Below are positions 1 to 19,402 of a stretch of DNA of 64,000 nucleotides, piece by piece (position 1 is the first letter of the stretch; each line of letters begins with the position of its first letter). Source of the DNA: Bacillota bacterium (lineage in GTDB: Bacteria > Bacillota > Clostridia > Oscillospirales > Acutalibacteraceae); assembly GCA_022706685.1 (NCBI GenBank), contig JAKJCA010000002.1, positions 4,459 to 68,458 of the forward strand. The letters are read 5' to 3'. Both the position numbers and the translations under genes were made by a program. The notes under the pieces were generated by a model. It was not told the DNA's origin. It saw nothing but the letters and a program-made list of their open reading frames with translations, and made no database searches.

Positions 1-147
1 AGCCGCCGCAACGATGGAATCGACGCAATGTGTTTGGGCAAGTCGAAAAATCCGGGCCCACTCGACGGAATGCATGGGTGGTTCGGGCGCGGTTCCCGTT
101 GCGCCGCAATAGGTTAAATAAATTAAATAGGAAAACTCGGCGGTCAT
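1..147 (-). CDS. 5' end of a CDS that runs off the window (MTAEFSYLIYLTYCGATGTAPEPPMHSVEWARIFRLAQTHCVDSIVAAA...). Possibly the uncharacterised nucleotidyltransferase family that accompanies HprK-like kinases in RiPP clusters.
   Basis: Own translation of the minus strand from the ATG at 147-145. It is absent from the ORF track because there is no stop in the window. It is co-directional with, and 99 nt downstream of, the HprK-like gene. The family guess rests only on remembered N-terminal similarity. Confidence 0.3.
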   Translation of the reverse strand, partial: MTAEFSYLIYLTYCGATGTAPEPPMHSVEWARIFRLAQTHCVDSIVAAA

Positions 148-245
148 ATGCGTTTACCTTTGCTGCCGGATGAGGACAATGAATACATTCGCCGGTCAAT
201 GCGATACTATTGAATGCTATTATATCTTAATTCAAAGCCAAAATT

Positions 246-977
246 TTATTCTTGAAAGGCGCGGCTGCCGCCGGCCGACATAGCGGTCCAGGCCGTAATA
301 ACCGCATCCGGGCTGATGTTGCATTCAAGGACATAAGCGGGCACTTCCGCTAAAAAATCCGTCAGAATGCCGGCGCTGATAACGGGTGTTTGGCTGTCGA
401 AGCGCCGTAAAACCTGGCCCCACATTCGTTGAAAAGCCTCTTTTTGAGGAATGCGCCCGATGTGATTGACATCGGCCCTTTCCAGAAAACACAGTCCCCG
501 GACCGGGTGCCTTTCGTTGATGCTGATGTCCGCCTTGCCGCTCCACGGCGTTCCGTAGGCGTAATACCGGCCGTCTGTCTTCCGGATGACCGGTTTGTCG
601 TCGTTGAGGATAAAGCAGTTTTTACCCTGAAAATATTCCACCCAAAGAGAGGCGTGCGTTGATTTTCCCGTGCCGCAATCGGCGGAAAAAAGATAGGCGG
701 AACCGTCGAGCACGACGGCCGAAGCGTGCAAAACAATTGCGTTGCGGCGAACGACTTCAATATTAAAATCCAATCCCGAGTAGCAATATTCTATATCGTC
801 GTCGCTCCAACCGGGATGTTTGATTTTTAAACTGGCGATTCTGCCGCGGGTCACTTCAATCTTGAAATCCGGGCTGCCGTTTTGAACCGCCGTTGCAAGA
901 TAAGGCCGCGCCTGCGACAATATGCGGCCTGAACAGCGAAGGTCGACGGTAAAATCGGCGATAGAATACAGGGGCAT
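246..977 (-). CDS. HPr-kinase-related P-loop protein (ScmC / HprK-related-kinase-like), a putative peptide-tailoring kinase
   Basis: 243-aa ORF with the P-loop SADCGTGKST. Its ATG lies 1 nt after the ABC-exporter stop (TAAcATG), which suggests translational coupling. Size and layout match HprK C-terminal-domain-like proteins found in radical SAM/PqqD cassettes. Confidence 0.65.
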   Translation of the reverse strand: MPLYSIADFTVDLRCSGRILSQARPYLATAVQNGSPDFKIEVTRGRIASLKIKHPGWSDDDIEYCYSGLDFNIEVVRRNAIVLHASAVVLDGSAYLFSADCGTGKSTHASLWVEYFQGKNCFILNDDKPVIRKTDGRYYAYGTPWSGKADISINERHPVRGLCFLERADVNHIGRIPQKEAFQRMWGQVLRRFDSQTPVISAGILTDFLAEVPAYVLECNISPDAVITAWTAMSAGGSRAFQE

Positions 978-978
978 G

Positions 979-2757
979 TTAATCTTCTCCGGGCCGGTTT
1001 TGGGTTTCGGTACAGATTTTCCTTGCCTCGGCCAGGGTCAACGGCCGGATGCTGTGATCCGCAACATGGTAAACCTTGTCGCAGATTTCAAGCACGCCGA
1101 AACGATGCGTGCTGAAAATACAGATTCGGTTGCCTTTGGTATTTTTGACATTCTGCAGGATATTGCGCTCGGTTTCAATGTCGAGCGAACTGGTGGCCTC
1201 GTCGAACAGGATAATCGGCTTCCCGCAAATGATTGCGCGGGCGATTGCGATGCGCTGCGCCTGCCCTTCGGATATGCCGATACCGTTTTCGCCTACATAC
1301 GTGTTGATGCCGTTTTCCATTTCGGCGACAAAGTCGTAAGCGCAGGCTGCTTTCAACGCGTCGACAATTTCGGGGTCGCTTGCATCCGGCTTGACGGTCC
1401 TCAGATTATCGGCTATTGTGCCTGAAAAAACCGTATTGCCCTGGGGAACATAGGCAAACAAAGACCTGGTGTGTTCGCTGACCGGTATTTCCCGGGACCC
1501 GTCCGCTTTTATTCTGACGCAAATCTTTCCTCCGCTTGGCCGGATAAGCCCGAGCAGGGCGCGGAAAATGGTTGTTTTTCCGCTGCCGGAAGACCCGATC
1601 AAAGCCACGGTATCGTTGCGGTCAAAGAGCATATGGACGTTTTCGACGATCGCGTCGCTGTTTTTATACTTCACTTCGACGTTTTCGAACGCAATTTCGG
1701 CGCCGTACCGCAGGCAGTTCTCCGTCGTTTTTCTGCTGCTTTCCACGTCCGGCTGTTCGTCGCGGTTGAGCCTCATCACCTCCATAATCCGGCTCGTCGA
1801 CGTCGACGCCGAAACCAAACCGGGTACGATGCCCGTTATCGACGAAAAAGAAGACCTGAAGATGGAAGACAGCTGTAGAAAAAGCGTCATCGTCCCGAAG
1901 GTGATGCCGCCCGTCCAAAGCCTGTATATGCCCCAGGCGTAGCAAGCGTAATTCGTGAACATGCCCAGAACTCCCATAAAAGCCGAGACGATGAGCGAGA
2001 TTTTATTAAAATCCATATTCACTTTTTCGTATCTTGACTGAACGCGCCGCAGATTATAAACACGGAACGGTTCAATGGCGAACGCTTTTAATATCTGTAT
2101 GTTCTTTAACGATTCGGCATTGAAAGACATCAGTTCGCTGTCGATTTTTTTCGTTTCCATGCTGAAAGCGTGGATTCTTTTCATCATCAGTTTGTAAATG
2201 ATGCCGAGGAACGGCGCCGACAGGAGGGAAAGGAAGGCGAAAGTGGGGTCGTAATACACAATGACCGCGAAAGCGCCGAACATCATGGCCGAACTGAGTA
2301 AAACGGAGTTCAAAGTCGAAACGACAATCCCCGAAACCGTTCTGACATCCGAATGAAGCCTGTTGAGCAGGTCGCCGGTCTGATAAACGGAAATATCTTC
2401 CCAGCGCGTATTCAAAATGGCTTGAAAGGCGTCCGCGATCATGCTGTTGGTGATCCTGATATTCACTCTGAGCGATATGCGGCTTGAAAGCGAATTGATG
2501 GGGATGTTGCAAAGCGACAGCAGGATTGTTGCGGCGAACGCCGTCCGAACGCCGGAAAGATTTTTGCCGACGACCGAATCGATGACGAATTTGAACGCGA
2601 CGCTGCTGACAAGGCTCAAGCCGGTTGCGATCAGGCCGAGCAGCAGGCAGAGAACAATTCTGCCGGAATACCGTTTGGTGTATTGGTAGTTCCACTTGAA
2701 CGTCGCGATGATTTCGCGGAGTATTTGTCTGTTGATGATTTCTTTTTTGTTTTTCAT
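979..2757 (-). CDS. ABC exporter with fused 6-TM permease and ATPase (peptide-export type)
   Basis: Walker A GSSGSGKTT, signature ISEGQAQR, Walker B ILFDEATSSLD and H-loop FSTHR, with an N-terminal multi-TM domain. The ORF track starts at TTG 2823. The ATG at 2757 (MKNKKEIINRQ...) is the more plausible start. Confidence 0.9.
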   Translation of the reverse strand: MKNKKEIINRQILREIIATFKWNYQYTKRYSGRIVLCLLLGLIATGLSLVSSVAFKFVIDSVVGKNLSGVRTAFAATILLSLCNIPINSLSSRISLRVNIRITNSMIADAFQAILNTRWEDISVYQTGDLLNRLHSDVRTVSGIVVSTLNSVLLSSAMMFGAFAVIVYYDPTFAFLSLLSAPFLGIIYKLMMKRIHAFSMETKKIDSELMSFNAESLKNIQILKAFAIEPFRVYNLRRVQSRYEKVNMDFNKISLIVSAFMGVLGMFTNYACYAWGIYRLWTGGITFGTMTLFLQLSSIFRSSFSSITGIVPGLVSASTSTSRIMEVMRLNRDEQPDVESSRKTTENCLRYGAEIAFENVEVKYKNSDAIVENVHMLFDRNDTVALIGSSGSGKTTIFRALLGLIRPSGGKICVRIKADGSREIPVSEHTRSLFAYVPQGNTVFSGTIADNLRTVKPDASDPEIVDALKAACAYDFVAEMENGINTYVGENGIGISEGQAQRIAIARAIICGKPIILFDEATSSLDIETERNILQNVKNTKGNRICIFSTHRFGVLEICDKVYHVADHSIRPLTLAEARKICTETQNRPGED

Positions 2758-2911
2758 ATTCGGCAACGCGTCCTCATCGGATTCTTGCTTGACCCTTCGC
2801 GGACCAAAAACCGGGGGTATCAAAATAACCGGCGATTTTGATACCCCTTTTGGTAAGCGGCAGACAGGATTTATGCTTTTCTGATAATGAAGGAACGGTT
2901 GAAACGGTTGA

Positions 2912-3250
2912 TTACGGCCAACCCGGCGGCGGATACACCGGAGGATCCGGCGGGGTATGACGAGGATTGGAACATAACATCCACCATACGAGAGTGAAGG
3001 CGTCTTCCGGTTTGCTGGGATAAGTCGTGCAAGGGACCTCCGGGTTTGGTGAATTCGCCGGCCTGTCGTTACACCACCCTATACCATGGCAGTCATTGCA
3101 TTTTGCATCATCCAAATCACTGCCTACGCCGGAAATGAGCATCTGGTCGGTTTCATAGGAGATAATCGACGCCCTTGGGGTAACATACGTCTTTTTGATA
3201 CTTACACCTCCCTTCCAAACCATATCCTGTCTGTCAGTGATTCGTTTCAT
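2912..3250 (-). CDS. Candidate RiPP precursor peptide with a Cys/Trp/Pro-rich C-terminal region. The true start is probably ATC 3199 or ATG 3223.
   Basis: A small ORF sits between the second radical SAM gene and the exporter. GGAGG at 3211-3207 is followed by a 7-nt spacer and an in-frame ATC at 3199, giving (M/I)KKTYVTPRASIISYETDQMLISGVG... The core is ...CNDCHGIGWCNDRPANSPNPEVPCTTYPSKPEDAFTLVWWMLCSNPRHTPPDPPVYPPPGWP. No SD precedes the ATGs at 3250 or 3223. Confidence 0.55.
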   Translation of the reverse strand: MKRITDRQDMVWKGGVSIKKTYVTPRASIISYETDQMLISGVGSDLDDAKCNDCHGIGWCNDRPANSPNPEVPCTTYPSKPEDAFTLVWWMLCSNPRHTPPDPPVYPPPGWP

Positions 3251-4310
3251 GCCGGCTGGCTAATTGTCCGTTTTCAAAAGACTCGCGGCGTTCTCTGGCC
3301 TCGGCGCAAAACGACGCGGGTACTTTGCCGTAATCTTGTGTTTCCGCGTACAATTTTCCCAAACAAATGCCGCAGAAAGCTTTGTCGGCGCAGTTTTTGC
3401 ATTCGTTGGGACCTTCGATAACAGTGAGCTGATCGCAAAGGGAATGCCAGGCGTTGATAAAACCGTCCTGGAAGGGCTCGGTGTACGGGACGCTTGCCGT
3501 CGGACAAAGCTGCATGTTTCCGTTCCAGGTGATGCAGTAAGCGGCGTTGACGGAACCGCAGTTTTTGGGGAAAAGAAGAAGGGAATCATTCTTTCCCGGG
3601 GCACTCAGCAGGTTTTGGGGCAGGCTCCCGAAATCGGCGGACATCGCTTTGCCCTCGGATACCGCGCCCCTGACGGGGTTGTTGAGGTGGTACCCGTAAC
3701 GAAATTGCCAATTGTTCTCCCGCGCGATTTTTTCGACAGCGGAGAAGTCTTTCACATTTTCCTTCGTCACGGTCATCTTCAGCTCGATGGGAATGCCGTT
3801 TTCTTTCATCAGCAGTAAGTTTCTTAATACAACGTCAAAACCGTCCCGGACTCCGCAAAGCTTTTGGTACGTTGCGTTTGAAGCGCCGTAAAGCGATACC
3901 GAAACAGAATAAGGCGGATGCCCGGCAAGCCTTTTTACGGCCGCTTCGTCGATGAGATATGCGTTGGAAAGGATGATGGGCACGATGCCGAGGCTGACGG
4001 CCTTTTCATAGATTTCAAAAAAATCGGAACGTAAAAAAACCTCTCCGCCGGTCAGTTGCAGGATTAATGTGCCGGCTTGCGCGGCGCTTTTGATTAGTTC
4101 TATCCATTCGGCGGCCGTCCGTTCCCTGCCGATTTTTTTCATCTGCGCGGGTTCCAGGCGGATATAACACATTTTGCACTTGAAATTGCATCTCGGCGTC
4201 AGCTCCAGAGTGCCGCAAATCGGGATTCGTTTTTCTCTGCAGCGGCCGAACAACGTAAAGAAATATTTTTCAGAAATAGAAATGTTTGTTGGGGAGGAAG
4301 GCCTCTTCAT
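3234..4310 (-). CDS. Radical SAM / SPASM-domain peptide maturase (copy 2)
   Basis: CX3CX2C motif CNFKCKMC within GTLELTPRCNFKCKMCY. C-terminal Cys cluster CKNCADKAFCGIC...FCAEA. The start is set at ATG 4310 (AAGGTG SD, just after the PqqD stop at 4321) rather than the track start at 4400. It is a paralog of the 4648-5709 protein. Confidence 0.9.
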   Translation of the reverse strand: MKRPSSPTNISISEKYFFTLFGRCREKRIPICGTLELTPRCNFKCKMCYIRLEPAQMKKIGRERTAAEWIELIKSAAQAGTLILQLTGGEVFLRSDFFEIYEKAVSLGIVPIILSNAYLIDEAAVKRLAGHPPYSVSVSLYGASNATYQKLCGVRDGFDVVLRNLLLMKENGIPIELKMTVTKENVKDFSAVEKIARENNWQFRYGYHLNNPVRGAVSEGKAMSADFGSLPQNLLSAPGKNDSLLLFPKNCGSVNAAYCITWNGNMQLCPTASVPYTEPFQDGFINAWHSLCDQLTVIEGPNECKNCADKAFCGICLGKLYAETQDYGKVPASFCAEARERRESFENGQLASRHETNH

Positions 4311-4320
4311 GGCGTCACCT

Positions 4321-4587
4321 TTATGGCTCGATGATACCGTTTTCCTGTAAAAATGTGACAAAATCGCGGATGCCCGCCTCGGCTTCCTCTGGGCTGACAT
4401 CGTAAGCTTCCGTCATCTTTTCGACCAGCTGCGAAATTGTCGCGTCCTCCGCCAGACAATCCCAAAGGAACGCGCCGGTTTCGTTTAAATCGATGAGCGC
4501 GTCGAAACTGCTGAGGTTTGCGCCGGTTGGGATGACGACGTAAGTCTCGTCTATTTCCCTTTTAACAAAACCAGGTTTGATTTTCAT
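4321..4587 (-). CDS. PqqD-family peptide chaperone (RiPP recognition element)
   Basis: 88 aa, acidic. The pattern ...VVIPTGANLSSFDALIDLNETGAFLWDCL...ISQLVEKMTEAYDVSPEEAEAGIRDFVTFLQENGII is typical of stand-alone PqqD proteins. A GGAGGGA SD precedes it, and it lies between two radical SAM genes. Confidence 0.8.
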   Translation of the reverse strand: MKIKPGFVKREIDETYVVIPTGANLSSFDALIDLNETGAFLWDCLAEDATISQLVEKMTEAYDVSPEEAEAGIRDFVTFLQENGIIEP

Positions 4588-4647
4588 AAGGCCGTCCCTC
4601 CGGTTGCAATTATTTAATTGATCTGTGTTTATTTTTATTTATTGAAG

Positions 4648-5709
4648 TTAAGAGACATTGCCGGTGGTTTCCAGGGCTTTTTTGCACAGCCTTGCCCGTT
4701 CGCAAAATGCGGGCGAACAAACGCTGCTGCTTCCGGTTTCCGCCATCAGTCTGCCGATGCATACGTTGCAGTACGGCTTCATATCGCAATTCTCGTATTC
4801 GGGCGGGCCTGTGACAGCGTCTAATTTTCGGCACAGTTCTTTCCACGCCGCGTGGAAACCGTCCCGCCAAGGCAAGGTAAAGGGCTCGAACGCCGTTGCG
4901 CAAAGGCTCATTTTCCCATCCCACGTGATAAAGAACGAGGCGTGATAGGCGCCGCAGCGCCGGATGAACGGGCCGGTCGAATAGCGGGCGTGATAATTTT
5001 TATCTAAAAAAACGGGCAGATTGCCCAAGCCGATACCGAGTTCCTTGCCCTCGGAATGCGCGCCCCGGATAGGATTCCTGACGTTATAGTCATAATGGAG
5101 CGTATATCCGTTCCGGTTGGCGATTTCCCGTACGGCGCCGTAATCGGCGATATTCTCCTTTGTCAGCGTCATCTTAAATTCAAGTTTGATTTTTGCTTCT
5201 TTCAGCATGTGGAAATTGCGGATCACGGTGTCAAACCCGTTTTCAATACCGCAAAGCTTCTTATAGGTTTCGTTGGAGGCACCGTACATCGTAAAAGAAA
5301 AAAGATAGGGGGGATATTCGGCAAGGAACCGGATTTTTTCCTCATCCAGCAGGGACGCATTAGAAAGGATGATGGGCAAGCCGCCGTTTTGAACGATAAA
5401 GCGGTAAATATCAAAAAAATCCTGTCTTAAAAGCACCTCTCCGCCAGTCAGTTCAAACAGCAGCGTGCCCTCTTTGACGGCCTGTCCGATGAGGTCCGTC
5501 CATTCCCGCGCGGTTCTCTCGGCGCCGATCGTTTTCATTTGCCTGGGCTGAAGCCGGACATAGCACATTTTGCACCGGAAATTGCATCGCGGCGTCAATT
5601 CCAGCGTGCCGCACAACGGAAGTTGTTTTGCGCGGTATTTGTTGGACAGAAAAAGCAGATATTCTTCCGAAAACAAATCGCCTTTTGAACAAATACCCAT
5701 CATATCCAC
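4648..5709 (-). CDS. Radical SAM / SPASM-domain peptide maturase (copy 1)
   Basis: CNFRCKMC (CX3CX2C) in GTLELTPRCNFRCKMCY. C-terminal Cys cluster ENCDMKPYCNVCIGR...FCERA. The start is ambiguous among GTG 5709, ATG 5703 and ATG 5700. Confidence 0.9.
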   Translation of the reverse strand: MDMMGICSKGDLFSEEYLLFLSNKYRAKQLPLCGTLELTPRCNFRCKMCYVRLQPRQMKTIGAERTAREWTDLIGQAVKEGTLLFELTGGEVLLRQDFFDIYRFIVQNGGLPIILSNASLLDEEKIRFLAEYPPYLFSFTMYGASNETYKKLCGIENGFDTVIRNFHMLKEAKIKLEFKMTLTKENIADYGAVREIANRNGYTLHYDYNVRNPIRGAHSEGKELGIGLGNLPVFLDKNYHARYSTGPFIRRCGAYHASFFITWDGKMSLCATAFEPFTLPWRDGFHAAWKELCRKLDAVTGPPEYENCDMKPYCNVCIGRLMAETGSSSVCSPAFCERARLCKKALETTGNVS

Positions 5710-5736
5710 CCACAGTACTCAGCCGCGGGGCGATGC

Positions 5737-6222
5737 CTATTCGACGGAAAGACCGAACATTTTGACGGCGGCGCTGATGATGAATCTCCGGACCGGAACA
5801 AGGGCCAGCCAAATATGTTCGTAAAATTCCCAGACGATGTTGCCGGGTTGAATGAGTTTTTCGTTTCGTTTGGCCGAAACGACGATTCCTTTGATTTGCT
5901 CCGCTTCAACCGGCCCCTCTTTCACGCTTTGGAAATCGCCGATTAGATAAAATTGGTTCTCTTTTTTATCTTTGCTGTAAATCCTGTGAATCACATACTG
6001 GCCGTTTTTTCGCCGGAAAAGGACGATATCCCCTCTTTTCAGCTTGGATAGATCCGCTTTCCCGATATGGATGGTGTCCCTGCGGTTTCGAAGGAAGGGG
6101 TACATGCTCACCCCGCATGCAAGGACCGAAACGGCGTTGCCGCAGGCGATAATATCCGTTAAAACGCCGATATACTCTTGCGTGTTGCTGATTTTCACAA
6201 GAGGTGTATCCATATTCATCAC
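5737..6222 (-). CDS. S26-family (SipW/ER-type) signal-peptidase-I-like protein, a putative leader peptidase
   Basis: Ser box GVSMYPF, a His box ...YVIHRIY (Ser-His type, as in SipW-like enzymes) and a GDIVLF block, with a hydrophobic C-terminal segment. It is the first gene of the operon. Confidence 0.65.
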   Translation of the reverse strand: MMNMDTPLVKISNTQEYIGVLTDIIACGNAVSVLACGVSMYPFLRNRRDTIHIGKADLSKLKRGDIVLFRRKNGQYVIHRIYSKDKKENQFYLIGDFQSVKEGPVEAEQIKGIVVSAKRNEKLIQPGNIVWEFYEHIWLALVPVRRFIISAAVKMFGLSVE

Positions 6223-6258
6223 CGTCGGCTGAACAAAACAAAAGAAATATTGTGGCTT

Positions 6259-6287
6259 ATATTATCATTTTATTTTAGTATTGTCAA
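6259..6287 (-). promoter_or_regulatory. Sigma-A-type promoter for the RiPP operon
   Basis: On the minus strand: TTGACA (6287-6282), a 17-nt spacer, then TAATAT (6264-6259). It lies in an AT-rich gap about 35 nt upstream of the peptidase start. Confidence 0.5.
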
Positions 6288-6380
6288 TAATAGTTAGTAG
6301 TTATGCTGATTTTTGAAAACAGAACCCCGATAAAATGAATAAATATGCAATCAATTAAACCGATGATCAAATCGAACGGC

Positions 6381-6428
6381 AAAAAACAGCCGTGCAGTCC
6401 GCGGGCGGAAATGCGGATTGCACGGTTG
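6381..6428 (-). terminator. Intrinsic terminator after the URO-D-like gene. A-run/T-run on both sides makes it possibly bidirectional.
   Basis: The 10-bp stem CAGCCGTGCA (6387-6396) / TGCACGGTTG (6419-6428) has one G-U pair. It is followed on the minus strand by TTTTTT (6386-6381). Confidence 0.55.
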
Positions 6429-6444
6429 CGGGCTTTTTTCTCTT

Positions 6445-7548
6445 TCAGCGATGCGCGTACCGCGCCGAATAGTCCAAATACATCTTGATGCCTTCGCCAG
6501 GCACGTTCCAGGGGATATGGTTGCCGATGCACATCATATAGCCGCCGGTCATTTGAGCCGTTTCGACCATGCTCAGCACCATCTTTTTAATGGCCGCGCC
6601 GTCGCAGGAACTCAGGATGCGGTTGTCGCCCTCGCCGGCGAGGAAGCAGTCCTTGTGCTTCGCGGCGATGGCTTTGTAGTCGGTGTAAGGCTCCGAGATG
6701 ATGCCCCTCGCCCCGCAGGCGAAGACGTCGTCGGCGTAAGCGTCCATGCAGCCGTCCGCCATGAAGATGACCTCTTTGCCCGCGCTTTTGACGATGGACC
6801 AGAACTCCTCGTACCGCGGGAAGATATAGCGGTTCATCCATTTCGGCGAACATACGGGCCCGCGCGTGGTGACGATGTCGTCGTGGCAGATGACAAAATT
6901 GACCGGCAGCCGGGCGAACGCGCGGAACACCCGCCGGTTGAGCTCGGCGAACTCGTCCATCACGCGCTGAAAACGCTCGTCGAGGCAGCAGCGCAGGAAC
7001 ATCTCCCAGCCGAAGGTCAGCAGCGGCCACATGAACATGGTGTTGTAAAAACACACGGAAGCGTCGGAACCCTCCGGCGCTTTGTCGGGTGCGCCGGGCG
7101 AGTCGTCGCCGCCGAAAAATTCAAACAGTTTTTCCTCGCTGCTGTAGTCCCAATCGACGACCACGTGCGGCCACTTGACAAAATCGGCGGCGTGCTCGAG
7201 CGGGCTGAAGGCGAACACGTCCTCCTCGGTTTTGAAAAACGCCTCGCCGTGCTCCCAGGTGGCCGTTTCACCGTCTCCCCAGCGGACGGTGTGCTTCGCG
7301 CTGTCCGAACTGTCGCCCCCGGCGCCCAGGCGCGGCCGCGGCCTCGGCTTGTCGGAGTCGGGCACGCCGAGCCCCAGCTGCGGGTAGAGTTCGCGCAGTT
7401 TCAGCCGGCAAAGCCGCGGGTGCTCATAGTAGTCGATGCCGGTCAGCCAGGTTTCGGCGTCCGGGTTCGACCAGTGCTCCCAGTGGGGGATGCGTTTCGG
7501 CCCCAGCCCCATATAGGCCATGTACCTGTCGCTGTACGGCATGGGCAA
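6445..7548 (-). CDS. Uroporphyrinogen-decarboxylase (URO-D)-family protein, function unknown
   Basis: 367-aa ORF with a GGAGGG SD. Overall similarity from memory to URO-D/MtaA-like TIM-barrel proteins. It resembles the second copy at 47501-48550 in its C-terminal half. Confidence 0.55.
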   Translation of the reverse strand: MPMPYSDRYMAYMGLGPKRIPHWEHWSNPDAETWLTGIDYYEHPRLCRLKLRELYPQLGLGVPDSDKPRPRPRLGAGGDSSDSAKHTVRWGDGETATWEHGEAFFKTEEDVFAFSPLEHAADFVKWPHVVVDWDYSSEEKLFEFFGGDDSPGAPDKAPEGSDASVCFYNTMFMWPLLTFGWEMFLRCCLDERFQRVMDEFAELNRRVFRAFARLPVNFVICHDDIVTTRGPVCSPKWMNRYIFPRYEEFWSIVKSAGKEVIFMADGCMDAYADDVFACGARGIISEPYTDYKAIAAKHKDCFLAGEGDNRILSSCDGAAIKKMVLSMVETAQMTGGYMMCIGNHIPWNVPGEGIKMYLDYSARYAHR

Positions 7549-7563
7549 CCCTCCGCCACCGTG

Positions 7564-8091
7564 TCAAAACTTCATATACCAGTAGACCGCTTTTTCTTCC
7601 GCGGCGAGCGGCAGTTTGTCATAATCGATGACGTCCACCGAACCGATGGCCATGCCCTGTTTGGCGTAGAAGCGGCAGGCGGCCAGGTTGTTGTCCTGCG
7701 TTTCGGCCGCCAGCCCGGGGAAACCGGCGCTTTTGGCCCACGCGACGGCCGCTTCGAACAGCGCGCTGCCGACGCCCGAACGCCTCGCCGCTTTCCTGAC
7801 GCAAAAGTCCTCGATGAGGGCATAGCCGTTCCAGTTTTTCGCCAGCACGATCTGCCCTTCGCAACCGTCGCCGCCGATAGAAAAGAATACGGCTTTGTCC
7901 TGCCGGCCGACGTAATCCCCGGCACGGGCAGCGTTGGGCTCGTACGGCTTTTCGCTCGAAAAAGCGAAAAGTTCCTCGGCGCAGGACCAGCAGCCGTTCT
8001 CGTATTTCGGGAGCAGGCGGCCGATGATGTCAATCGGCTCGTTGGCCGTATTGAAATCGGCCATGTTTGATTGTGTCATGCGGACAATCAA
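7564..8091 (-). CDS. GNAT-family N-acetyltransferase
   Basis: Acetyl-CoA motif RKAARRSGVGSALFEAAVAWAK and ...NNLAACRFYAKQGM. The start is uncertain, with alternative Met codons at aa 5 and 10. Confidence 0.8.
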   Translation of the reverse strand: MIVRMTQSNMADFNTANEPIDIIGRLLPKYENGCWSCAEELFAFSSEKPYEPNAARAGDYVGRQDKAVFFSIGGDGCEGQIVLAKNWNGYALIEDFCVRKAARRSGVGSALFEAAVAWAKSAGFPGLAAETQDNNLAACRFYAKQGMAIGSVDVIDYDKLPLAAEEKAVYWYMKF

Positions 8092-8118
8092 TGGATTTCA
8101 CCGCCGGTTCCGCGCCGG

Positions 8119-10284
8119 TCACGCCTGGTCGAGCACACGGAACAATTCCTCGAACGGGATGCCGCTGTCTTTTCCTTTTTCGACGAGGAGTTTGTTGTAA
8201 CGCGCAATCCAGTAGGGCATGATGATGTTGTACGACTCGTGCAGATGACGGCCCATGTGCCCCTGTCTGGCCTGGAAAAAGTTCGCGCCCGTGCTGCCGC
8301 GCTCGTCCATCGCCACGGCGTAGGGTTTTCCGCTGTCCGGATAGAACAGGAACCCCTCGTCCTCAACCGCATCCGGGCGTGTGGCGTTGTCGATAAGGAA
8401 CTCGCGCGAGTTGACGGGGTAGCGGCTGATCTGCCACCGGAGCATATCGAGGCAGGAGCGGCCGAATCCGTCGAACTGCTCCGCTTCGTTATGGATGACC
8501 TGGTAAATCAGCGACCATTCGATATCCCGCGCGTATTTTTCAAGTTCCCACCAGGAATCCGCGCCCTGCCGGTATTTCTCCAGCAGCACCGGGTCGGTTT
8601 CCAACTGCGAGAGGGTGTAGTACGAAACGGCGGCCATGCGCACGTCGGAGTAGTTCATGATCTTGACCACGCGGTTGAAAATTTCTTCCTCGTCGTTCTC
8701 GTCCTCGACGAGGTCCTTCGCGATGATACGGTAGCGTTCGAAATGCTCGCGCAGCAGGTCCGCGTAGCGGTACGGCTCTTCGAGCGCGAGTTTGCGGTAC
8801 TCGCGGTCCCATTCCTCGTCGCCGGTGATGTGGTGGGCGACCTTGTACAGCTGCAGCAGGATGGAAAGGCCCAGCGGCGCGTCCGGGAAGCCGTCGGAGT
8901 ACTCGTTCATGTAGTATTCGCGGTTCATCCTCGCCCAGGAGGTCGGCTGGCCGCCGGCGTCGGTGTGGCAGTAGTTGTTGTCGGTGAAATGCCTCGCGTG
9001 CCGCCGCACGACGGTCTTGATGATGTCCGCCAGTTCGGGGTCTTCCGGCCCGAGGATATCGTAGGCCAGGTGCCAGACCGCGTAATGGCCGACCAGTTCG
9101 TCATTGGAAGTGTCGCATTTATAGATGATGTCGTCGTCGCCCCAGGGTTTGCCGGTTTTTGGGTTCACTTCATCGGTGTACAGTTTTTTCAGCCGCGCGG
9201 GGATTTCCATGGAGCTGTCCACCGTCAGAAGGGGCGGGATGTCGTCCCCCTTGTCGGAGGTGGAAGGGATGCGCACGGACACCAGCTTGCCGTCGGGCGT
9301 GAACTTTTTGCGGAAAAACACGCCGTCGCCGAAGGGGACGGGGTCGTTCTCCGGGTCGTTGACATGGTAGGAGCGGGCGATGTAGCCCTCCACATTGCGG
9401 AAGACGATTTCCGGCATCCCCTGCGTTGCCCAGTCCTCCGGCCGGGCGGGGCCCACCTTGCTGACCACGCAGCCGACCGGTCCGTGGTCGGGCAGGTTGA
9501 TTTTATACTCCCTGCCTTCCAGCAGGAACTCGTCGCTCGCGCGGTTGGTGCCGGGCTTGTTGTAGCGGACGAAAGAAGCCACTTTCCCCTTCCAGCTTGG
9601 GATGCAGGCCAGCAGCAGGACAGCCTCCGTCCAGCGCGTCGCCGTTTCTTTCGCGCGCGCGATTTCTTCTTTCGTCGCCGAGGGGTCGTCCCTGAGCACC
9701 GCGTAGCGGCAGATGTCGCCCATGGCGACCAGCGAGGTCCATAGGCCGTCGTTGTCGGATTCACGGCCGACCCAGCGGCCGTTCTTCTGGTCCCAGCGCG
9801 CGCCGCTGAGCATGCCGCGGCGCTGCACATAGCGCATATCGACTTCCGAAAGGAAAACGGCCTTTTCCTTGGCGGACATCGCTTTCATCGCGATATGCGC
9901 CACGCTCGTCGCGGTCAGCACATACACGCCGCTGCCGCCGTCGCCGTACACCGCGAGCACCTCGTTGTCGAGCATATAGGCCGCCGCCCGGAAACACTGG
10001 ACGCGGTCGAGCGGCTCGGGTTCCTTTTCATTCACGCGCCAAAGCCCCTCGCGGGTGCCCAGCCAAAGGACGCCTTGCCCGTCCTCATACGCGCAGGTAA
10101 TCGTTTCCGGCGCCAGAAAATCCGGCAGGCGCGCGGCCTGGGCGGCGCTGAGCGGTGTTTTGGGCAGATTTTCCAGCCGCCGGACCAAATCCGGGTTGTC
10201 CCCGCGCGGCTGCCGGATGGCCAGGCGCTGCAGCGTCTCCCTGATTTCAAGCGGTTTGCCCTGATAATCCCTTTTCTGAGCCAT
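8119..10284 (-). CDS. Large cytoplasmic protein of unknown function (721 aa)
   Basis: Long ORF with an AAGGAGA SD and protein-like composition. I can assign no motif with confidence. The N-terminal GVLWLGTREGLWRV resembles a beta-propeller repeat. Confidence 0.6.
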   Translation of the reverse strand: MAQKRDYQGKPLEIRETLQRLAIRQPRGDNPDLVRRLENLPKTPLSAAQAARLPDFLAPETITCAYEDGQGVLWLGTREGLWRVNEKEPEPLDRVQCFRAAAYMLDNEVLAVYGDGGSGVYVLTATSVAHIAMKAMSAKEKAVFLSEVDMRYVQRRGMLSGARWDQKNGRWVGRESDNDGLWTSLVAMGDICRYAVLRDDPSATKEEIARAKETATRWTEAVLLLACIPSWKGKVASFVRYNKPGTNRASDEFLLEGREYKINLPDHGPVGCVVSKVGPARPEDWATQGMPEIVFRNVEGYIARSYHVNDPENDPVPFGDGVFFRKKFTPDGKLVSVRIPSTSDKGDDIPPLLTVDSSMEIPARLKKLYTDEVNPKTGKPWGDDDIIYKCDTSNDELVGHYAVWHLAYDILGPEDPELADIIKTVVRRHARHFTDNNYCHTDAGGQPTSWARMNREYYMNEYSDGFPDAPLGLSILLQLYKVAHHITGDEEWDREYRKLALEEPYRYADLLREHFERYRIIAKDLVEDENDEEEIFNRVVKIMNYSDVRMAAVSYYTLSQLETDPVLLEKYRQGADSWWELEKYARDIEWSLIYQVIHNEAEQFDGFGRSCLDMLRWQISRYPVNSREFLIDNATRPDAVEDEGFLFYPDSGKPYAVAMDERGSTGANFFQARQGHMGRHLHESYNIIMPYWIARYNKLLVEKGKDSGIPFEELFRVLDQA

Positions 10285-10376
10285 GGCGGTCTCCTTTTCT
10301 ATTCAGCGTGATTTTTGATTGGCGCGTCGTGTGCCCTCGCCGGGAGCGCGTTTTGCGCGGCCTTAATACGGCGTAT

Positions 10377-11684
10377 TCAGCCGTTGAAATCAAAGGCTCC
10401 CGGCTTATCGAAGGTCAGCGGATAATAAGCGATCACGGTCAAATCCGGCCGGTACAGCGCCGCGTATTCCGCGGCGGAACCCTCGTAATGCCTAAGGTCC
10501 AGAAGGCGGATTTCCGCGTTTGCGGCGAGGGCAAGAAATGGCAGGAACGCCGCGCAATAGGAATCCCCGATGATCAGCAGTTTTTTGTCCTGGGGCGCGT
10601 TCATGTTTTTGATGACCTTCAAACCGTGGTCCTCGCCGAGATAGTACATATAGCAGTTCTTGACGAACAGGTTGCCGTCTTGCAGATATTTCTGGTTGAC
10701 GAGGGTATCCTCAAAGCGGCCCCGTTTCTGGAAACTCGTGCTGCCCGACGTGTAGTAATAATAAAAATCGGTGTTTTCTTTCGGCAGCAGAACTTCGAAA
10801 TCGTCGAGCCCCGCGTAATGTTTGCCGACCCGCTTGCCCTGGCTGCCCAGCCAGGATTTTTGATAGACCGTGCGGGTAAAATTCGCCGGGTCGATGAGCC
10901 CCGCGTCGGCGGAAAACCCGAAATTTTTGTTGAGTTCGCCGCACATCTCCCCGGCGGCCCACAGACCGGTCGAGGGCAGCCAGTGGTGGTCCGTCCGGAA
11001 GAACAGCGCGTGGTAGTCAAGCCGCTGCTCCAGAATACGCTGGCGCAGATCGAAGGTCGCGACGCCCCTGGCCTCCAGCGCGCCGAGCAGGCCGCTGGCT
11101 TTTGCATTGGTATAATCTGCTACGCCCCGGGGCAGCTGCGGATCGAGGCTATTGATTTTAAAAGGCATCTGCACATAAAGCAGCCGCGAGCCCGAAGCGG
11201 CCAGCTGCGAGCCGAACGAGGCGATGGCCGCCGCGCTTGTCTGCGCGAAACCGCCGTCGGGCCGGGGGTCGATGAAGGTCAGGTAACCGTCGTCGAGCTT
11301 GATGACGCTTCTTTCGCCGCTGTTTTTTTCCTCCATAATGCGGTTGCCCATCGCGCGGTTGACCAGCCCGTGCAGGCTGATGAAATCCGTCCGGCGGAAA
11401 AGGTTCTCGTCCAGGCCGTTGAGTTTCTTACAAATGGCAAACGCCGCGGCTTTTGCCTTGGCCGCCGCGCCCGCGTTTGCGCCGGCGGTTTCGGCGTACA
11501 AAGTCAAAGTTTCCTGCCGGTTTACGTACAAACGCGCGCCGGTACCCGCGAGCACGACGAAAAGGAACGCGATGAAAACGACGGAAATGACGGCGTCCCT
11601 GTCGAACTTCAACTTCAAACGAGCACCTCCCGCGGTCGATGGGCCGGCCGGCGGCGCCGGCGCGAAACACCAAAGATTATACAT
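10377..11684 (-). CDS. DHHW-motif protein (AlgX/AlgJ-like SGNH fold, membrane-anchored)
   Basis: FFRTDHHW motif and an N-terminal TM segment (AVISVVFIAFLFVVLAG). The start is set at ATG 11684 (GGGGAGAGG SD) rather than the track start at 11834, which would overlap the divergent GH36 gene. Confidence 0.7.
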   Translation of the reverse strand: MYNLWCFAPAPPAGPSTAGGARLKLKFDRDAVISVVFIAFLFVVLAGTGARLYVNRQETLTLYAETAGANAGAAAKAKAAAFAICKKLNGLDENLFRRTDFISLHGLVNRAMGNRIMEEKNSGERSVIKLDDGYLTFIDPRPDGGFAQTSAAAIASFGSQLAASGSRLLYVQMPFKINSLDPQLPRGVADYTNAKASGLLGALEARGVATFDLRQRILEQRLDYHALFFRTDHHWLPSTGLWAAGEMCGELNKNFGFSADAGLIDPANFTRTVYQKSWLGSQGKRVGKHYAGLDDFEVLLPKENTDFYYYYTSGSTSFQKRGRFEDTLVNQKYLQDGNLFVKNCYMYYLGEDHGLKVIKNMNAPQDKKLLIIGDSYCAAFLPFLALAANAEIRLLDLRHYEGSAAEYAALYRPDLTVIAYYPLTFDKPGAFDFNG

Positions 11685-11818
11685 CAACGCCTCTCCCCAT
11701 TTCAATCGGAAGAAAACACGGGTTTTTCTCCGGAGACCCTTGCATTTTCGCCCCGCCGTATTTATTGTTAATGGAAGGCAAAACACCCGGGCGGCGTTGA
11801 CTGCGGCAAAGAACAACC

Positions 11819-13795
11819 ATGAAAGAAGGCGCATCCATGGAATGGGACGAAAACAGCCTGGCGTTCGGGCTGAGCTTCGATTACGGCGGCGAAAGTTTTC
11901 AAAGCCTGCTGCCCGGCGCGCAAACCGCGCGCGGGGGAACCGGCGGCGAAACGACGGTGGAAATCCGTCTGGGCAACCTGAAATTGACGCGTGTCATCAA
12001 GCGGTACCCCGCCTTCGACGCCGTCGAATGGGTGCACTGGTTTGAAAACACGGGCGAGGAACCGACCGGCGTCATCTCCGCGCTGTTTGACTGCGACGTG
12101 CGCGTCCCGTTTGAAAACGACGAACCGCGCGTGCCCGGTTACCGCGTCAAAGAGACCTCGAGCCGTGTTTACAGCGCCAAAGGATCCGTGCTGGCGCGCG
12201 ACGAGTTTTGCCCGAAAGCCGCTTATCTTGCGCCGGGGCAAACGCTCCGCTATGCCTGCGAGGGCGGCCGTTCCTCCAACGGCACCGCGCCGTTTTTCAA
12301 TGTCTGCCGCGAAAGGAAGGGCATTTATGTTGCTGTCGGCTGGTCGGGCCAGTGGCAGGCGTATTTCACGCGCGGGGACGGCTTCATCGGCATCCGGACG
12401 GGCATCGAAAACACCGGTTTCCGGCTCCTGCCCGGGGAAAAAATCAGGACATCGTCCGTGCTGCTGATGGGGTACGAAGGGGATCAGCCGCAGGGCCGCA
12501 ACCGGTTCCGGCGGCTGGTCAGGGAGCACTTTTCCCTTATCGGCAAACCCGGCAAGCCGGAAAACGGGCCGTTTTGCACGATGGTGTGGGGCGCTTTGCC
12601 CACCGCCGGGGTGATCGAAAGGCTTGAAAAATACAAACAGGAACGTTTCGGTTTCGAATATCTCTGGATGGACGCCGCCTGGTACGGCTCCCCTTCGGGT
12701 TACTGCCCCAGCGAGCACGTCGGCGACTGGGGAACCCAGACGGGCAACTGGGCCGTCAACACCAAAACACATCCCGACGGCTTGCTCGACGTCGCCGCCA
12801 AGGTCAAAGAGAACGGCATGAAGTTCCTGCTGTGGATTGAACCCGAGCGCGTCATCGCGTCCAACCCGACGCCGAGGGAGCACCCCGGCTGGTATTTCAA
12901 ACGCCGCGGCGACGACCGGGAAAACGCCACCTGGCTGCTCAACCTCGGCGACGAGGGGGCGTTCGAGGGGACGGCGGCGATGGTCGAACACTATATCGAA
13001 ACCCTCTCGCTGGGCTGTTACCGGCAGGATTTCAACACCGATCCGCTGCCCTATTGGCTTGACAACGACGAGCCGGAGCGCGCCGGCATCTGTGAGATCA
13101 AACACATCATGGGGCTGTACCGGCTTTGGGACCGTCTGCTTGAAAAATATCCGTCCCTCATCATCGACAACTGCGCCAGCGGCGGCAGACGCATCGACAT
13201 CGAAACGCTGCGCCGCTCGATACCCCTGTGGCGCAGCGACTACCAGTGCACCTGGGATTTCGACCCCGAAACATCCCAGACGCACAACATGGGCTTTTCC
13301 TCCTGGCTGCCGTTTACCGGTACGGGCACGGGCAAACTGTTCGGGGACGACTACCGTTTCCGCAGCAGTTACGCCGCGGCGCTGACGACCTCCTACTGGG
13401 GTTACGAGGGCTGGGAAATCAGCGACGGCCAGCCGCTGGAATGGGTGCGCCGCTCCAACGCGGAATACCTGCGCGCGAGGCCGTATTTTTCACGCGATTT
13501 CTATGCGCTGACCCCTCCGCCGATGGACGACTGTTCCTGGGCCGCCAGCCAGTATCACGACCCGGATAAAAACGCCGGGATCGTGCTGGCGTTCCGCAGG
13601 CCGCTGTGCCCGTGCGATTCGGCGGTTTTACGCCTCGAAGGGCTCGACGGCGCCGCCGCCTACCGTGTCGAAGACGCCGGCAGCGGCGAGGCGTTTGAAA
13701 CGGACGGGGCTTCCCTCGCCGCGGGCCTGCGCGTTTGCCTGCCCTGCCCGCGGTCGTCGAAACTGTATTTCTACTCGAAAATAACGGCGGAATAA
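11819..13795 (+). CDS. GH36-like alpha-galactosidase
   Basis: Blocks YLWMDAAWY and IDNCASGGRRID are typical of GH36. The alternative start ATG 11837 has the better SD (GAAAGAAGG). Confidence 0.75.
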   Translation: MKEGASMEWDENSLAFGLSFDYGGESFQSLLPGAQTARGGTGGETTVEIRLGNLKLTRVIKRYPAFDAVEWVHWFENTGEEPTGVISALFDCDVRVPFENDEPRVPGYRVKETSSRVYSAKGSVLARDEFCPKAAYLAPGQTLRYACEGGRSSNGTAPFFNVCRERKGIYVAVGWSGQWQAYFTRGDGFIGIRTGIENTGFRLLPGEKIRTSSVLLMGYEGDQPQGRNRFRRLVREHFSLIGKPGKPENGPFCTMVWGALPTAGVIERLEKYKQERFGFEYLWMDAAWYGSPSGYCPSEHVGDWGTQTGNWAVNTKTHPDGLLDVAAKVKENGMKFLLWIEPERVIASNPTPREHPGWYFKRRGDDRENATWLLNLGDEGAFEGTAAMVEHYIETLSLGCYRQDFNTDPLPYWLDNDEPERAGICEIKHIMGLYRLWDRLLEKYPSLIIDNCASGGRRIDIETLRRSIPLWRSDYQCTWDFDPETSQTHNMGFSSWLPFTGTGTGKLFGDDYRFRSSYAAALTTSYWGYEGWEISDGQPLEWVRRSNAEYLRARPYFSRDFYALTPPPMDDCSWAASQYHDPDKNAGIVLAFRRPLCPCDSAVLRLEGLDGAAAYRVEDAGSGEAFETDGASLAAGLRVCLPCPRSSKLYFYSKITAE

Positions 13796-13817
13796 TCCGC
13801 CGGTGAAAGGCCGAACC

Positions 13818-14678
13818 ATGCCGTATCTGATGCTTTTGTTTTCCACGGGCCTGATGATTGCCATCTGGCCCGTCAACCGCGCCGTAATGAAAAAAGGCGG
13901 CAGGGCCCCTAACATCGGCCTGGTGATCGGCCTTGCGGGCGCGCTGGCCGCGGCGGCGGCGGCCAAGATGAACGGGGAGACTTTTTTTCATCCCCGGGCG
14001 ATGTTCTACGGGGCGCTGGCCGGCGTGGCGTTTTCGCTGGGCTACTGCATGATTATCTTCCACTGCCTGAAAATCGGTCCTTCCGGCCCGACGGTCATGA
14101 TGAACAACCTGGGGATGGTCGCGCCGGTATTGCTCAATATCCTCTTTTTTCCGGGCGGGGCGAAACCCTCGGCGTTCGCGGGAGCCGGCCTGCTGCTGAG
14201 TCTTGCGGCGCTGATTTTAATGGCGTTCAACAGCGGTGCGGACGGCGGCAAACCCTCGATGAAATGGTTCGGCTGGGTGCTGCTGGGATTCTTTCTCTCC
14301 TGCGTGTCCATGGGGGCGCAGTATCTGGCCGCGAAGTCCGTGCCCAACCTGCCCTACTCCTACGCTTTTTACTGCCAGACGGTGACCTTCCTGATTCTGC
14401 TGGGCGTCTGCGCCGCGCGAAAGAGCGTTCTGCCCACGAAGATTGAGGCGCTCGCCGGCGTTTTCAGCGGCACGGTCGGCGTGCTCAACGCCGGGGTGCT
14501 GTTTTATCTGATTAAAAATATGCCGGGTTATATCGTTTTCCCCGTCGTGATGGTGACGCCGATTGTCGTGATGCTGATTCTGGGCCACGCCGTCTACCGG
14601 GAAAAACTCAACCGTTACGGGGTCTCCGCCTGCGCGGCCGGCCTGCTGGGCATCGTTCTGCTCAACGTCGTCCCCTGA
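13818..14678 (+). CDS. Polytopic membrane protein, DMT/EamA-like permease
   Basis: About 10 predicted hydrophobic helices. ATG 13818 is preceded by GAAAGG. It follows GH36 with an 8-nt gap to the track start. Confidence 0.55.
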   Translation: MPYLMLLFSTGLMIAIWPVNRAVMKKGGRAPNIGLVIGLAGALAAAAAAKMNGETFFHPRAMFYGALAGVAFSLGYCMIIFHCLKIGPSGPTVMMNNLGMVAPVLLNILFFPGGAKPSAFAGAGLLLSLAALILMAFNSGADGGKPSMKWFGWVLLGFFLSCVSMGAQYLAAKSVPNLPYSYAFYCQTVTFLILLGVCAARKSVLPTKIEALAGVFSGTVGVLNAGVLFYLIKNMPGYIVFPVVMVTPIVVMLILGHAVYREKLNRYGVSACAAGLLGIVLLNVVP

Positions 14679-14775
14679 CACGCGCATTTGCAATTCAGCC
14701 CGTTCGTGGTAAGATGGGACTGTAAACGGGCGGCGCCCGGCCGCCCGGCCGACCGGTTGAAAGGAGAAGGCTGTT

Positions 14776-15537
14776 ATGAAAAAGAACAGATTGTTTTCCT
14801 GCGCGGCCTGCCTTGCCGCGATGCTGGTGCTGCTGTCCGGCTGCGGCCCGTTTTCGCTGCTCGCCGGCAGGTTCCGGCGCGGCGGAACCACGACGCCGCC
14901 GACGAGCATCTCTTCCCTGACACAGGAAGAAACCACGGCTGCGCAAACGACTCAACAAACGCAGACAACGGCGCAGGGCACGCAGGCGCCCGCGGTGAAA
15001 GACCTGTACACCCTTGACGACACCAAAGCCCTCGACGCCGATTTCAGCGCGGGATTTCAAGTCAAAATCCCGATGATTGTTTCAGGCAAACCGGGCGCGG
15101 CGGCCGTCAACGCCGAGATGGAGGCCCTCAAGGCGAACATCCTCAGCGAGCGCGCCTCCGCCGGGGACCTTTCCGGTTACGACCGGCTCAACAGGGTATC
15201 GTACGAATATTATGCCGATAAGGGCGTTTTGTTCCTGTCGGTATCCACCCTGACGGCGTATTACCAGAGCGAGGCTGTCGCGGACAACCTTTACTATGCC
15301 TATGATTACGGCGCCGACCGGCGCCTTGCCGATACGGAAGTCGCCGCGCTGTTCGGTTTCGACGAAGCCGGCGTGGTCGCCGCCGTCAACGCGGCGCTGG
15401 CCGCGAGAGGCGCTTCCCCCGTTACGGGATTCGATAAAATCGACCTGTTTGTCAACGGCTCCGGCGTCTTTTGCGCGGATGCCAAAGTCGAGAGCATGCT
15501 GGGGGGAGAATACCCCGAAATCGTCGAACTCCAATAA
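14776..15537 (+). CDS. Lipoprotein of unknown function
   Basis: Signal peptide with lipobox LLSGC (MKKNRLFSCAACLAAMLVLLSGCG), a Thr/Gln-rich linker and a GAAAGGAGAAGG SD. Confidence 0.7.
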   Translation: MKKNRLFSCAACLAAMLVLLSGCGPFSLLAGRFRRGGTTTPPTSISSLTQEETTAAQTTQQTQTTAQGTQAPAVKDLYTLDDTKALDADFSAGFQVKIPMIVSGKPGAAAVNAEMEALKANILSERASAGDLSGYDRLNRVSYEYYADKGVLFLSVSTLTAYYQSEAVADNLYYAYDYGADRRLADTEVAALFGFDEAGVVAAVNAALAARGASPVTGFDKIDLFVNGSGVFCADAKVESMLGGEYPEIVELQ

Positions 15538-15548
15538 GGATCGAGTAT

Positions 15549-15573
15549 AAAAAAACCGCGGTTTCCCGCGGCG
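15549..15573 (-). terminator. Intrinsic terminator at the end of the V-ATPase operon
   Basis: On the minus strand: CCGCGG-GAAA-CCGCGG hairpin followed by TTTTTTT (15555-15549). Confidence 0.6.
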
Positions 15574-15586
15574 GAGGAAAAGGGCC

Positions 15587-16216: not shown

Positions 16217-16227
16217 ACGAGGTCCCT

Positions 16228-19376: not shown

Positions 19377-19402
19377 AAAAATCACCCTGCCTTCAAAGAG
19401 GC

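Follow-up and report, generated by a model that had tools for sequence, protein, structure and literature searches.

An unannotated small open reading frame as the probable LppA-like precursor gene of a peptide-modifying operon with two radical SAM/SPASM enzymes in a Bacillota bacterium

A 64,000-nucleotide stretch of contig JAKJCA010000002.1 (assembly GCA_022706685.1, positions 4,459 to 68,458) from a Bacillota bacterium, hereafter called the window, carries a small open reading frame (ORF; 2912-3250, minus strand) next to genes for radical S-adenosylmethionine (rSAM) enzymes with SPASM domains, and this ORF raises the question of whether it is a functional gene, at which codon its translation would start, and to which biosynthetic system its product would belong. 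A preliminary description of the locus had pointed to an ATC codon as the possible start and to a ranthipeptide-type leader. Our analysis leads to a partly different answer: with a probability of roughly 0.8, the ORF is a functional LppA-like precursor gene of a horizontally acquired operon for a peptide that is made by ribosomes and modified after translation (RiPP), in which the machinery of linear polyphosphorylated peptides (LPPs) is combined with two paralogous rSAM/SPASM enzymes. This reading is carried by the gene set, the family-wide architecture of the precursor genes, the geometry of the start site, and the purifying selection acting on the ORF, all of which were observed directly.

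The minus-strand sequence around the start, GGAAGGGAGGTGTAAGTATCAAAAAGACGTATGTTACCCCA, places a 7-nt spacer (TGTAAGT, 3206-3200) between the GGAGG core of a Shine-Dalgarno (SD) sequence (3211-3207) and the in-frame ATC (3199-3197), exactly as previously described. When paired with the 3' tail of the 16S rRNA, this SD yielded -19.8 kcal/mol, which is the minimum of all 22-nt windows across the 6.5-kb cluster (mean -3.6, standard deviation 2.8), compared to -6.4 kcal/mol for ATG 3223, where the spacing is zero, -3.2 kcal/mol for ATG 3250, and values from -5 to -11 for the other genes of the cluster. Since its pairing energy is the cluster minimum, the SD ahead of ATC 3199 is no chance match, and the statement that the only strong SD precedes the ATC and neither of the ATGs holds. 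Furthermore, three assemblies made independently from the window's lineage (including L043 and L052) have ATC at 3199, as do L053-L056 of a sister lineage (L053-L057), and it is therefore no sequencing error.

Counted from ATC 3199, the product reads IKKTYVTPRASIISYETDQMLISGVGSDLDDAKCNDCHGIGWCNDRPANSPNPEVPCTTYPSKPEDAFTLVWWMLCSNPRHTPPDPPVYPPPGWP and contains a WW pair, a Pro-rich tail, and five Cys in the contexts CND, CHG, CND, CTT, and CSN, with CHG being an addition to the four that had been listed before. Profile searches against Pfam and NCBIfam revealed no family for this peptide (no hit at E ≤ 1), a word-index search of a set of 5.8 billion proteins returned no homolog, and a metagenome scan found an identical copy only, in agreement with the earlier view that the core does not belong to a known family. 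When 1.84 billion representative proteins were searched exhaustively with HMMER, the lone phmmer hit, a Pro-rich stretch in a repetitive protein of 3471 aa, was rejected as a low-complexity match, and weak tblastn matches of residues 48-86 at related loci were considered spurious, as they lie inside other rSAM genes. In an exact look-up, the ORF had not been annotated by gene callers in any of the contigs examined, and besides it no YxxP-type small ORF was found in the cluster.

The architecture of related loci places the ORF in a family. A genome scan with the rSAM enzyme encoded directly upstream (rSAM-2) yielded 16 loci with full-length rSAM-2 relatives (28-45% identical), which have PqqD, rSAM, ScmC, and ATP-binding cassette (ABC) transporter genes in common and in most cases also encode an S26 peptidase. 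Extra contexts were reached via protein matches. Although the scan for small ORFs at related loci imposed no start-codon requirement, it revealed 38 ORFs of one design, in which a GGAGG/GAGGT SD is followed, after 4-9 nt, by ATG and then by [KR]-x-Y/W-[VI]-x-P, so that a leader module of about 16 residues precedes a variable core, usually with Cys. All 38 begin 2-4 residues ahead of the Tyr/Trp, and in all 38 the ATG stands exactly where the window has ATC, which identifies codon 3199 as the canonical start position of the family. The proposal of a RiPP precursor with an N-terminal leader beside rSAM/SPASM genes is thus joined by 38 leader-type relatives; the preliminary description would have given it up if homologous clusters lacked a conserved small ORF, and the opposite was found. 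In a hidden Markov model (HMM) search with the leaders of the relatives only, the window being left out, the window ORF ranked first of 1470 six-frame segments (E 0.047), with MKkYvKPelevvs aligned to KKTYVTPRASIIS. At two loci (L001 and L050), a leader-type ORF lies directly 3' of the rSAM gene, as in the window, and the L001 precursor contains CND and is followed by a similar hairpin.

It should be noted that clostridial cassettes (L003-L014; e.g., 7434-7583, 9230-9376, and 9418-9549 in L006) encode precursors of three classes, for none of which Pfam or NCBIfam holds a curated model. Class A, encoded upstream of PqqD, is rich in Gly, His, and Pro in the middle and in Trp at the end (FWFLCNW, FFPW), often with zero Cys, and classes B and C are encoded downstream of the rSAM gene and have paired Cys. 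In its Trp-rich end (LVWWMLCSN...GWP), the window peptide is similar to class A. Related cassettes occur in capsule or glycosyltransferase neighborhoods, and in one capsule-type locus (L050/L051, 209-2626, minus strand), an 805-aa fusion of a glycosyltransferase with a radical SAM/SPASM protein is encoded a few kb from such a cassette.

Selection on the ORF could be assessed in the sister lineage, which was found by a search with the ScmC-like protein and matches the window cluster at 97.0% identity. There, no change affects the ATC, the SD, either upstream ATG, or the hairpin stem behind the ORF, and the 288 nt from ATC to stop differ by two substitutions (CCA>CCC and TTG>TTA), both at third codon positions and synonymous, with zero indels, stops, or nonsynonymous changes. 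By Nei-Gojobori counting, the proportions of synonymous (pS) and nonsynonymous (pN) differences are 0.032 and 0, respectively, compared to 0.048-0.176 and 0.005-0.028 in six neighboring genes; for the other genes of the cluster, pN/pS ranges from 0.07 to 0.30. Neutral evolution would predict 22.8 substitutions when the pooled synonymous rate is applied and 15.1 with the lowest local rate, rendering the deficit significant in either case (P 3.5e-8 and 3.7e-5, respectively). Therefore, the ORF has been under purifying selection since before the lineages split and is no pseudogene, a constraint that implies translation and argues against a dead gene.

With regard to the start codon, the family geometry and the SD energy favor codon 3199, where low-level AUC initiation would be boosted by the very strong SD; judged from the sequence, we give this start about an even chance. 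The same gene with the same function could instead start at ATG 3223, through re-initiation 11 nt past the rSAM-2 stop, or at ATG 3250, in which case the coding sequence would contain the strong SD as an inherited relic and 12 or 21 leader residues would precede the Tyr. We regard such a start as less probable than one at the ATC. AUC is a poor initiator where it has been measured in bacteria, and both ATGs are in frame and kept in the sister lineage. All three candidate starts leave the leader intact, and the upstream ones would merely lengthen it to a size comparable with that of LppA, whose characterized leader comprises 27 residues (PMC13381572), about 11 of them ahead of the Tyr by our own count from the published motif, so that an N-terminal extension should be tolerated. 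On the other hand, neither ATG comes near the pairing energy and ideal spacing of the SD at ATC 3199, none of the 38 relatives starts that far ahead of the Tyr/Trp, and the GC content at third codon positions of the extension (3200-3250) is 0.44 versus 0.58-0.66 in the cluster genes. Furthermore, the single substitution that separates 3250-3200 from the sister lineage is synonymous for rSAM-2 but changes Ile to Thr in the frame of the extension, which speaks weakly against a coding role of the extension.

Table 1. Coordinates of the features discussed, counted along the window; L043 is a contig 99.7% identical to it. SpI, signal peptidase I; RRE, RiPP recognition element; NTP, nucleoside triphosphate.
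Feature	Position	Strand	Remarks
Small ORF	2912..3250	-	112 aa from ATG 3250 (ORF list)
Proposed precursor peptide gene, LppA-like	2912..3199	-	from ATC 3199: 95 codons plus stop 2914-2912
In-frame upstream extension with ATG 3250 and ATG 3223	3200..3250	-	overlaps the last 17 nt of rSAM-2
Extended Shine-Dalgarno sequence GAAGGGAGGTGT, core GGAGG 3211-3207	3204..3215	-	7 nt upstream of ATC 3199
YVTP, YxxP-type RRE-recognition motif of the leader	3176..3187	-	motif role according to PMC13381572 and PMC12710340
Y-E-T-D-Q-M, candidate leader/core junction	3140..3157	-	suggested by LPP cleavage data and the 16-residue leader module of relatives
NTP-transferase (PF14907), 5' end, LppN-like	1..147	-	runs off the window; complete 422-aa gene in L043
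ScmC-family P-loop protein, putative HprK-like peptide kinase	246..977	-	243 aa
MsbA-like ABC exporter	979..2757	-	592 aa from ATG 2757; TIGR02204 MsbA_rel E 7.6e-76; PF00664 and PF00005; gene call in L043
13-bp G+C-ended hairpin, then CGGTTTTTGG	2814..2847	-	between precursor and exporter genes; probable attenuating terminator
rSAM/SPASM-2	3234..4310	-	358 aa from ATG 4310; PF04055; CxxxCxxC and all seven conserved SPASM cysteines
Discrete PqqD-type RRE	4321..4587	-	88 aa; PF05402 E 1.5e-16
rSAM/SPASM-1, paralog of rSAM-2	4648..5700	-	350 aa; CxxxCxxC
SpI-like (archaeal-type signal peptidase I/SipW-like) putative leader peptidase	5737..6219	-	160 aa
Promoter-like TTGACA-17-TAATAT with TG extension	6259..6287	-	about 40 nt upstream of the peptidase gene; consensus match only
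Hairpin with T-run	~6428-6387		3' of the preceding gene

From about 6290 down to 1, the genes make up a single unit, all of them being encoded on the minus strand (Table 1), and their products go beyond the preliminary description in that the SpI-like peptidase, the ScmC/HprK-like protein, the NTP-transferase, and the exporter tie the cluster to LPP and SynChlorMet-type systems. LPPs, whose definition as phosphorylated linear peptides from Bacilli dates only from 2026 (PMC13381572), were described with the lppA-K-B-S-D-N genes of Paenibacillus alginolyticus (Popov et al., Nat Commun 2026; PMC13381572), whose core set encodes the SpI-like peptidase LppS (WP_029196374.1), the RRE LppB, the HprK-like kinase LppK, the NTP-transferase LppN, and the MsbA-like pump LppD (PMC13381572). 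In their clusters, 1-3 precursor genes encode peptides of 35-200 aa in which variable C-termini follow a YxxPxVLxHQxIxFETxxS leader; LppK polyphosphorylates Ser+3, and LppS, aided by LppB, cleaves after T-1 of FET (PMC13381572). [quoted passage not shown]

The I-S-Y-E-T of the window leader resembles the I-x-F-E-T of LPPs but lies 3 residues closer to YxxP, Met then being at +3; in the gapless register, Ser is found at +3 (DQM/LIS) but FET is unmatched. By analogy, cleavage is predicted either after T (YET/DQM, like IxFET/ in LPPs) or after M (DQM/LIS, gapless register). Differences from LPPs are that two intact rSAM/SPASM genes lie within the operon, whereas LPPs are defined as linear, Ser-polyphosphorylated, and without a cross-linking enzyme; that Cys, Trp, and Pro abound in the core; that 4 leader residues precede the Tyr instead of about 11; and that the host is a high-GC uncultured Bacillota bacterium, not a member of the Bacilli. 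Radical SAM, SPASM, and Clostridia are not mentioned in PMC13381572 and its supplements, and our literature searches returned nothing on the LPP gene set together with rSAM enzymes, on SynChlorMet/Scm names, or on RiPPs combining SipW and rSAM.

Two further systems share parts of this gene set. The SynChlorMet cassette ScmC/D/E/F was defined bioinformatically, and we compared it via its NCBIfam models (TIGR04248-TIGR04251), all four of which match window proteins: the ScmC-family P-loop protein, the PqqD-like protein, and the two rSAM/SPASM enzymes. However, the scores (ScmC 27.7 vs. 125 bits, ScmD 28.0 vs. 100, ScmE 69.5 vs. 400, and ScmF 53.6 vs. 400) show that these are no equivalogs, and the window cluster adds the SpI-like peptidase, the exporter, and the NTP-transferase. 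Paeninodin-type lasso clusters have a YxxP leader read by a discrete PqqD RRE as well, with an HprK-like kinase and a PF14907 NTP-transferase as tailoring enzymes, but neither a lasso cyclase (Asn-synthetase-like C) nor a B2 transglutaminase-type cysteine peptidase was found among the ORFs of the window cluster, whose putative leader peptidase is instead a serine SpI-like enzyme.

A different assignment would take the locus as a ranthipeptide or sactipeptide system proper, in which the rSAM enzymes would be the maturases that define the class, their substrate would have a ranthipeptide-type leader, and the remaining genes would be incidental. The two SPASM-type rSAM enzymes would fit this assignment, as would a Cys-rich core with Cys beside Asn-Asp; SkfB, the closest solved structure to rSAM-2 (E 7.6e-17) and also the nearest to rSAM-1, is a thioether-forming sactisynthase, one annotation pipeline labelled rSAM-2 'AlbA', and sactipeptide and ranthipeptide systems with two enzymes exist (thuricin CD, ruminococcin C). 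We nevertheless consider this assignment unlikely. None of the curated rSAM equivalogs came close to its cut-off for either enzyme: StsB reached 74.3 of 625 bits, SkfB 69.3 of 300, AlbA 44.4 of 850, and PapB (NF047865) 31.5 of 340 for rSAM-1, while for rSAM-2 PapB is absent from the best 25 matches listed. Nor did the peptide match a known ranthipeptide or SCIFF precursor family among the NCBIfam and Pfam models. Unlike the systems represented by SkfB, AlbA, CteB, and PapB, the window rSAMs have no fused N-terminal RRE, this function falling to a separate PqqD protein, and the peptidase, ScmC, NTP-transferase, and ABC genes, which set the cluster apart as accessory enzymes, co-occur with this rSAM clade at many loci. 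Moreover, YxxP is what lasso-peptide RREs are documented to recognize (PMC12710340) and is also the documented recognition motif in LPP precursors (PMC13381572), whereas the motif of sactipeptide RREs is reported as HIxxI (PMC12710340), and the best curated match of the PqqD protein is lasso_PqqD_Bac, a lasso PqqD chaperone (5e-10, below cut-off; ScmD 1.8e-6). For these reasons, the leader reads as lasso/LPP-like, and the ranthipeptide-type leader of the preliminary description is not supported.

The individual enzymes are assigned with differing firmness. rSAM-1 and rSAM-2 are 50% identical without gaps over 336 aa, but residue 302 of rSAM-1 is Tyr, where rSAM-2 and all seven compared relatives have the first Cys of the SPASM CxxC, which suggests, at the level of sequence, that the paralogs differ in auxiliary-cluster ligation. 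The SpI-like peptidase matches TIGR02228 with E 1.9e-11 (44.1 bits vs. a cut-off of 51.85) and SipW with 0.007, and 10 of 10 aligned sequences share its catalytic motifs, with Ser in GxSMxPF, His in YxxHR, and Asp in GDxQ. For the ScmC-like protein, in which the G-K-S-T P-loop is invariant, the matches to ScmC (1.6e-6) and HprK-related kinase A (3.3e-4) are both below cut-off, in addition to a precomputed assignment to PF27840 (ScmC). A profile of its homologs recovered nonsignificant P-loop matches but no HPr kinase among PDB sequences, and a single-sequence AlphaFold model was discarded at a predicted local distance difference test (pLDDT) score of 32. The NTP-transferase gene starts in L043 at the equivalent of window position 147, and an NTP_transf_5 gene follows ScmC in L043 as well as in L053-L057. 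The fold of the hairpin at 2814-2847 has a z-score of only -2.2 in its 136-nt context, and no Rfam family was found in positions 1-8000 at E ≤ 0.1. Since the GC content of the cluster (about 0.50 in 1-6400) is lower than that of its flank (about 0.61 in 7000-20000), it is suggested to be a horizontally acquired island.

In that flank, a GNAT acetyltransferase (7564-8091, minus strand) with a full-length match to the streptothricin acetyltransferase Sat4 (E 3.8e-40, 138 bits vs. a cut-off of 380) is related to this resistance enzyme but no equivalog of it. Several long ORFs in the high-GC part (6418-8070, 8071-9744, and 10308-11771 on the plus strand and 11768-13285 on the minus strand) are antisense to family-matched or predicted genes and most likely represent composition artifacts.

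Another explanation of the ATC is that the ancestral ATG mutated in a gene that has been silenced or is decaying while the cluster is being lost. Among the 39 members of the family, the window alone lacks an ATG at the start position, the cluster forms an island of low GC content, and in some strains (L044, L045, and L046), window homology stops inside the 3' end of rSAM-2, just past CGIC (equivalent to about 3363), beyond which unrelated sequence and then MFS/MatE genes follow, so that these strains have a truncated rSAM-2 and no precursor, exporter, ScmC, or NTP-transferase gene and the cluster is broken in a part of the population; the alternative flank of L044 is absent from the window. 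However, the ATC is older than the split of lineages whose neighboring genes differ by a pS of 0.05-0.18, and over this time the ORF has acquired no disabling or nonsynonymous change and far fewer substitutions than expected, with the SD and hairpin intact and the other cluster genes under constraint themselves. Decay is therefore improbable. Within the window's own lineage, L043 differs by 18 mismatches over 6.5 kb, 16 of which fall within 100 bp of rSAM-2 (4029-4128; KSAAQ in the window, TCAVQ in L043). This patch looks like a short recombination tract, and gene conversion from rSAM-1 was not supported as its source, since the patch shows no similarity to the paralogous region.

Finally, a chance ORF or a conserved noncoding element such as an RNA, for which its absence from gene annotations and the lack of protein homologs could be cited, is highly improbable, given that leader motif, SD geometry, position, and hairpin reproduce the architecture of the family, that both substitutions are synonymous third-position changes in the frame with the best codon score of all six, and that Rfam returned no match.

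Taken together, the precursor reading suggests the following sequence of events. The operon would be transcribed from the promoter-like site at 6287-6259, and the hairpin 3' of the precursor gene would lower read-through into the exporter, kinase, and NTP-transferase genes, thereby probably setting the ratio of precursor to enzymes. Hairpins at this place are frequent in RiPP operons. The precursor would be translated from the strongest ribosome-binding site of the cluster, most likely at ATC 3199, with ATG 3223 and ATG 3250 as alternatives. By homology to the Paenibacillus LPP system, the discrete PqqD RRE would bind YVTP and present the peptide to the modifying enzymes, the ScmC/HprK-like protein would phosphorylate Ser near the leader/core junction, and the SpI-like peptidase, together with the RRE, would remove the leader near YET/DQM, before the MsbA-like pump exports the product. 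The rSAM/SPASM pair may cross-link the five-Cys, Trp-rich core, a role proposed because of the enzyme class, the similarity to SkfB, and the near-universal Cys in the cores of relatives. Given the enzyme class, thioethers would be the likeliest chemistry, and they are a plausible candidate modification of the core, which is species-specific.

Several points weigh against this reading. At its favored start, it would involve a codon that is a very weak initiator in tested bacteria, and none of the 38 relatives starts at anything but ATG. Divergence is likewise low (1.3-1.5%) in the spacer next to the ORF and in the ABC gene, so that the conservation of the ORF could partly stem from a regional effect or recent recombination. 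The leader diverges from both the LPP and the clostridial consensus past position 10, and the leader HMM score is marginal. The core lacks homologs, and the conservation of its residues can be checked in one sister lineage only. Furthermore, the kinase assignment of the ScmC-like protein is weak, and the loss of the precursor half of the cluster in L044-L046 shows that the system is dispensable.

Beyond a functional precursor gene, we tentatively consider that the locus represents an undescribed RiPP class, in which an AUC-initiated precursor with a lasso/LPP-type leader recruits, via one RRE, rSAM cross-linkers as well as an LPP kinase and SpI peptidase, yielding a cross-linked, phosphorylated, and exported product, and in which the near-cognate start combined with a strong SD would be a selected dosage device. 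This is a bolder proposal, and one that we regard as rather improbable in its entirety.

As judged from gene content, the window cassette adds SPASM-type rSAM enzymes to LPP machinery and represents a widespread but unnamed cassette, which appears to be common in Clostridia and their relatives, with 949 homologs of rSAM-2 at E ≤ 1e-40 and 316 of ScmC, all of them unnamed. Since up to three precursor classes per cassette lack Pfam and NCBIfam models, gene callers and RiPP miners miss them. The cassette is a manageable starting point for studying new cross-link chemistry and the way in which a single RRE serves enzymes of several types. Moreover, a canonical start position that has long kept an ATC, in a gene on which purifying selection acts, would be among the rare test cases that nature offers for near-cognate initiation in the Bacillota.

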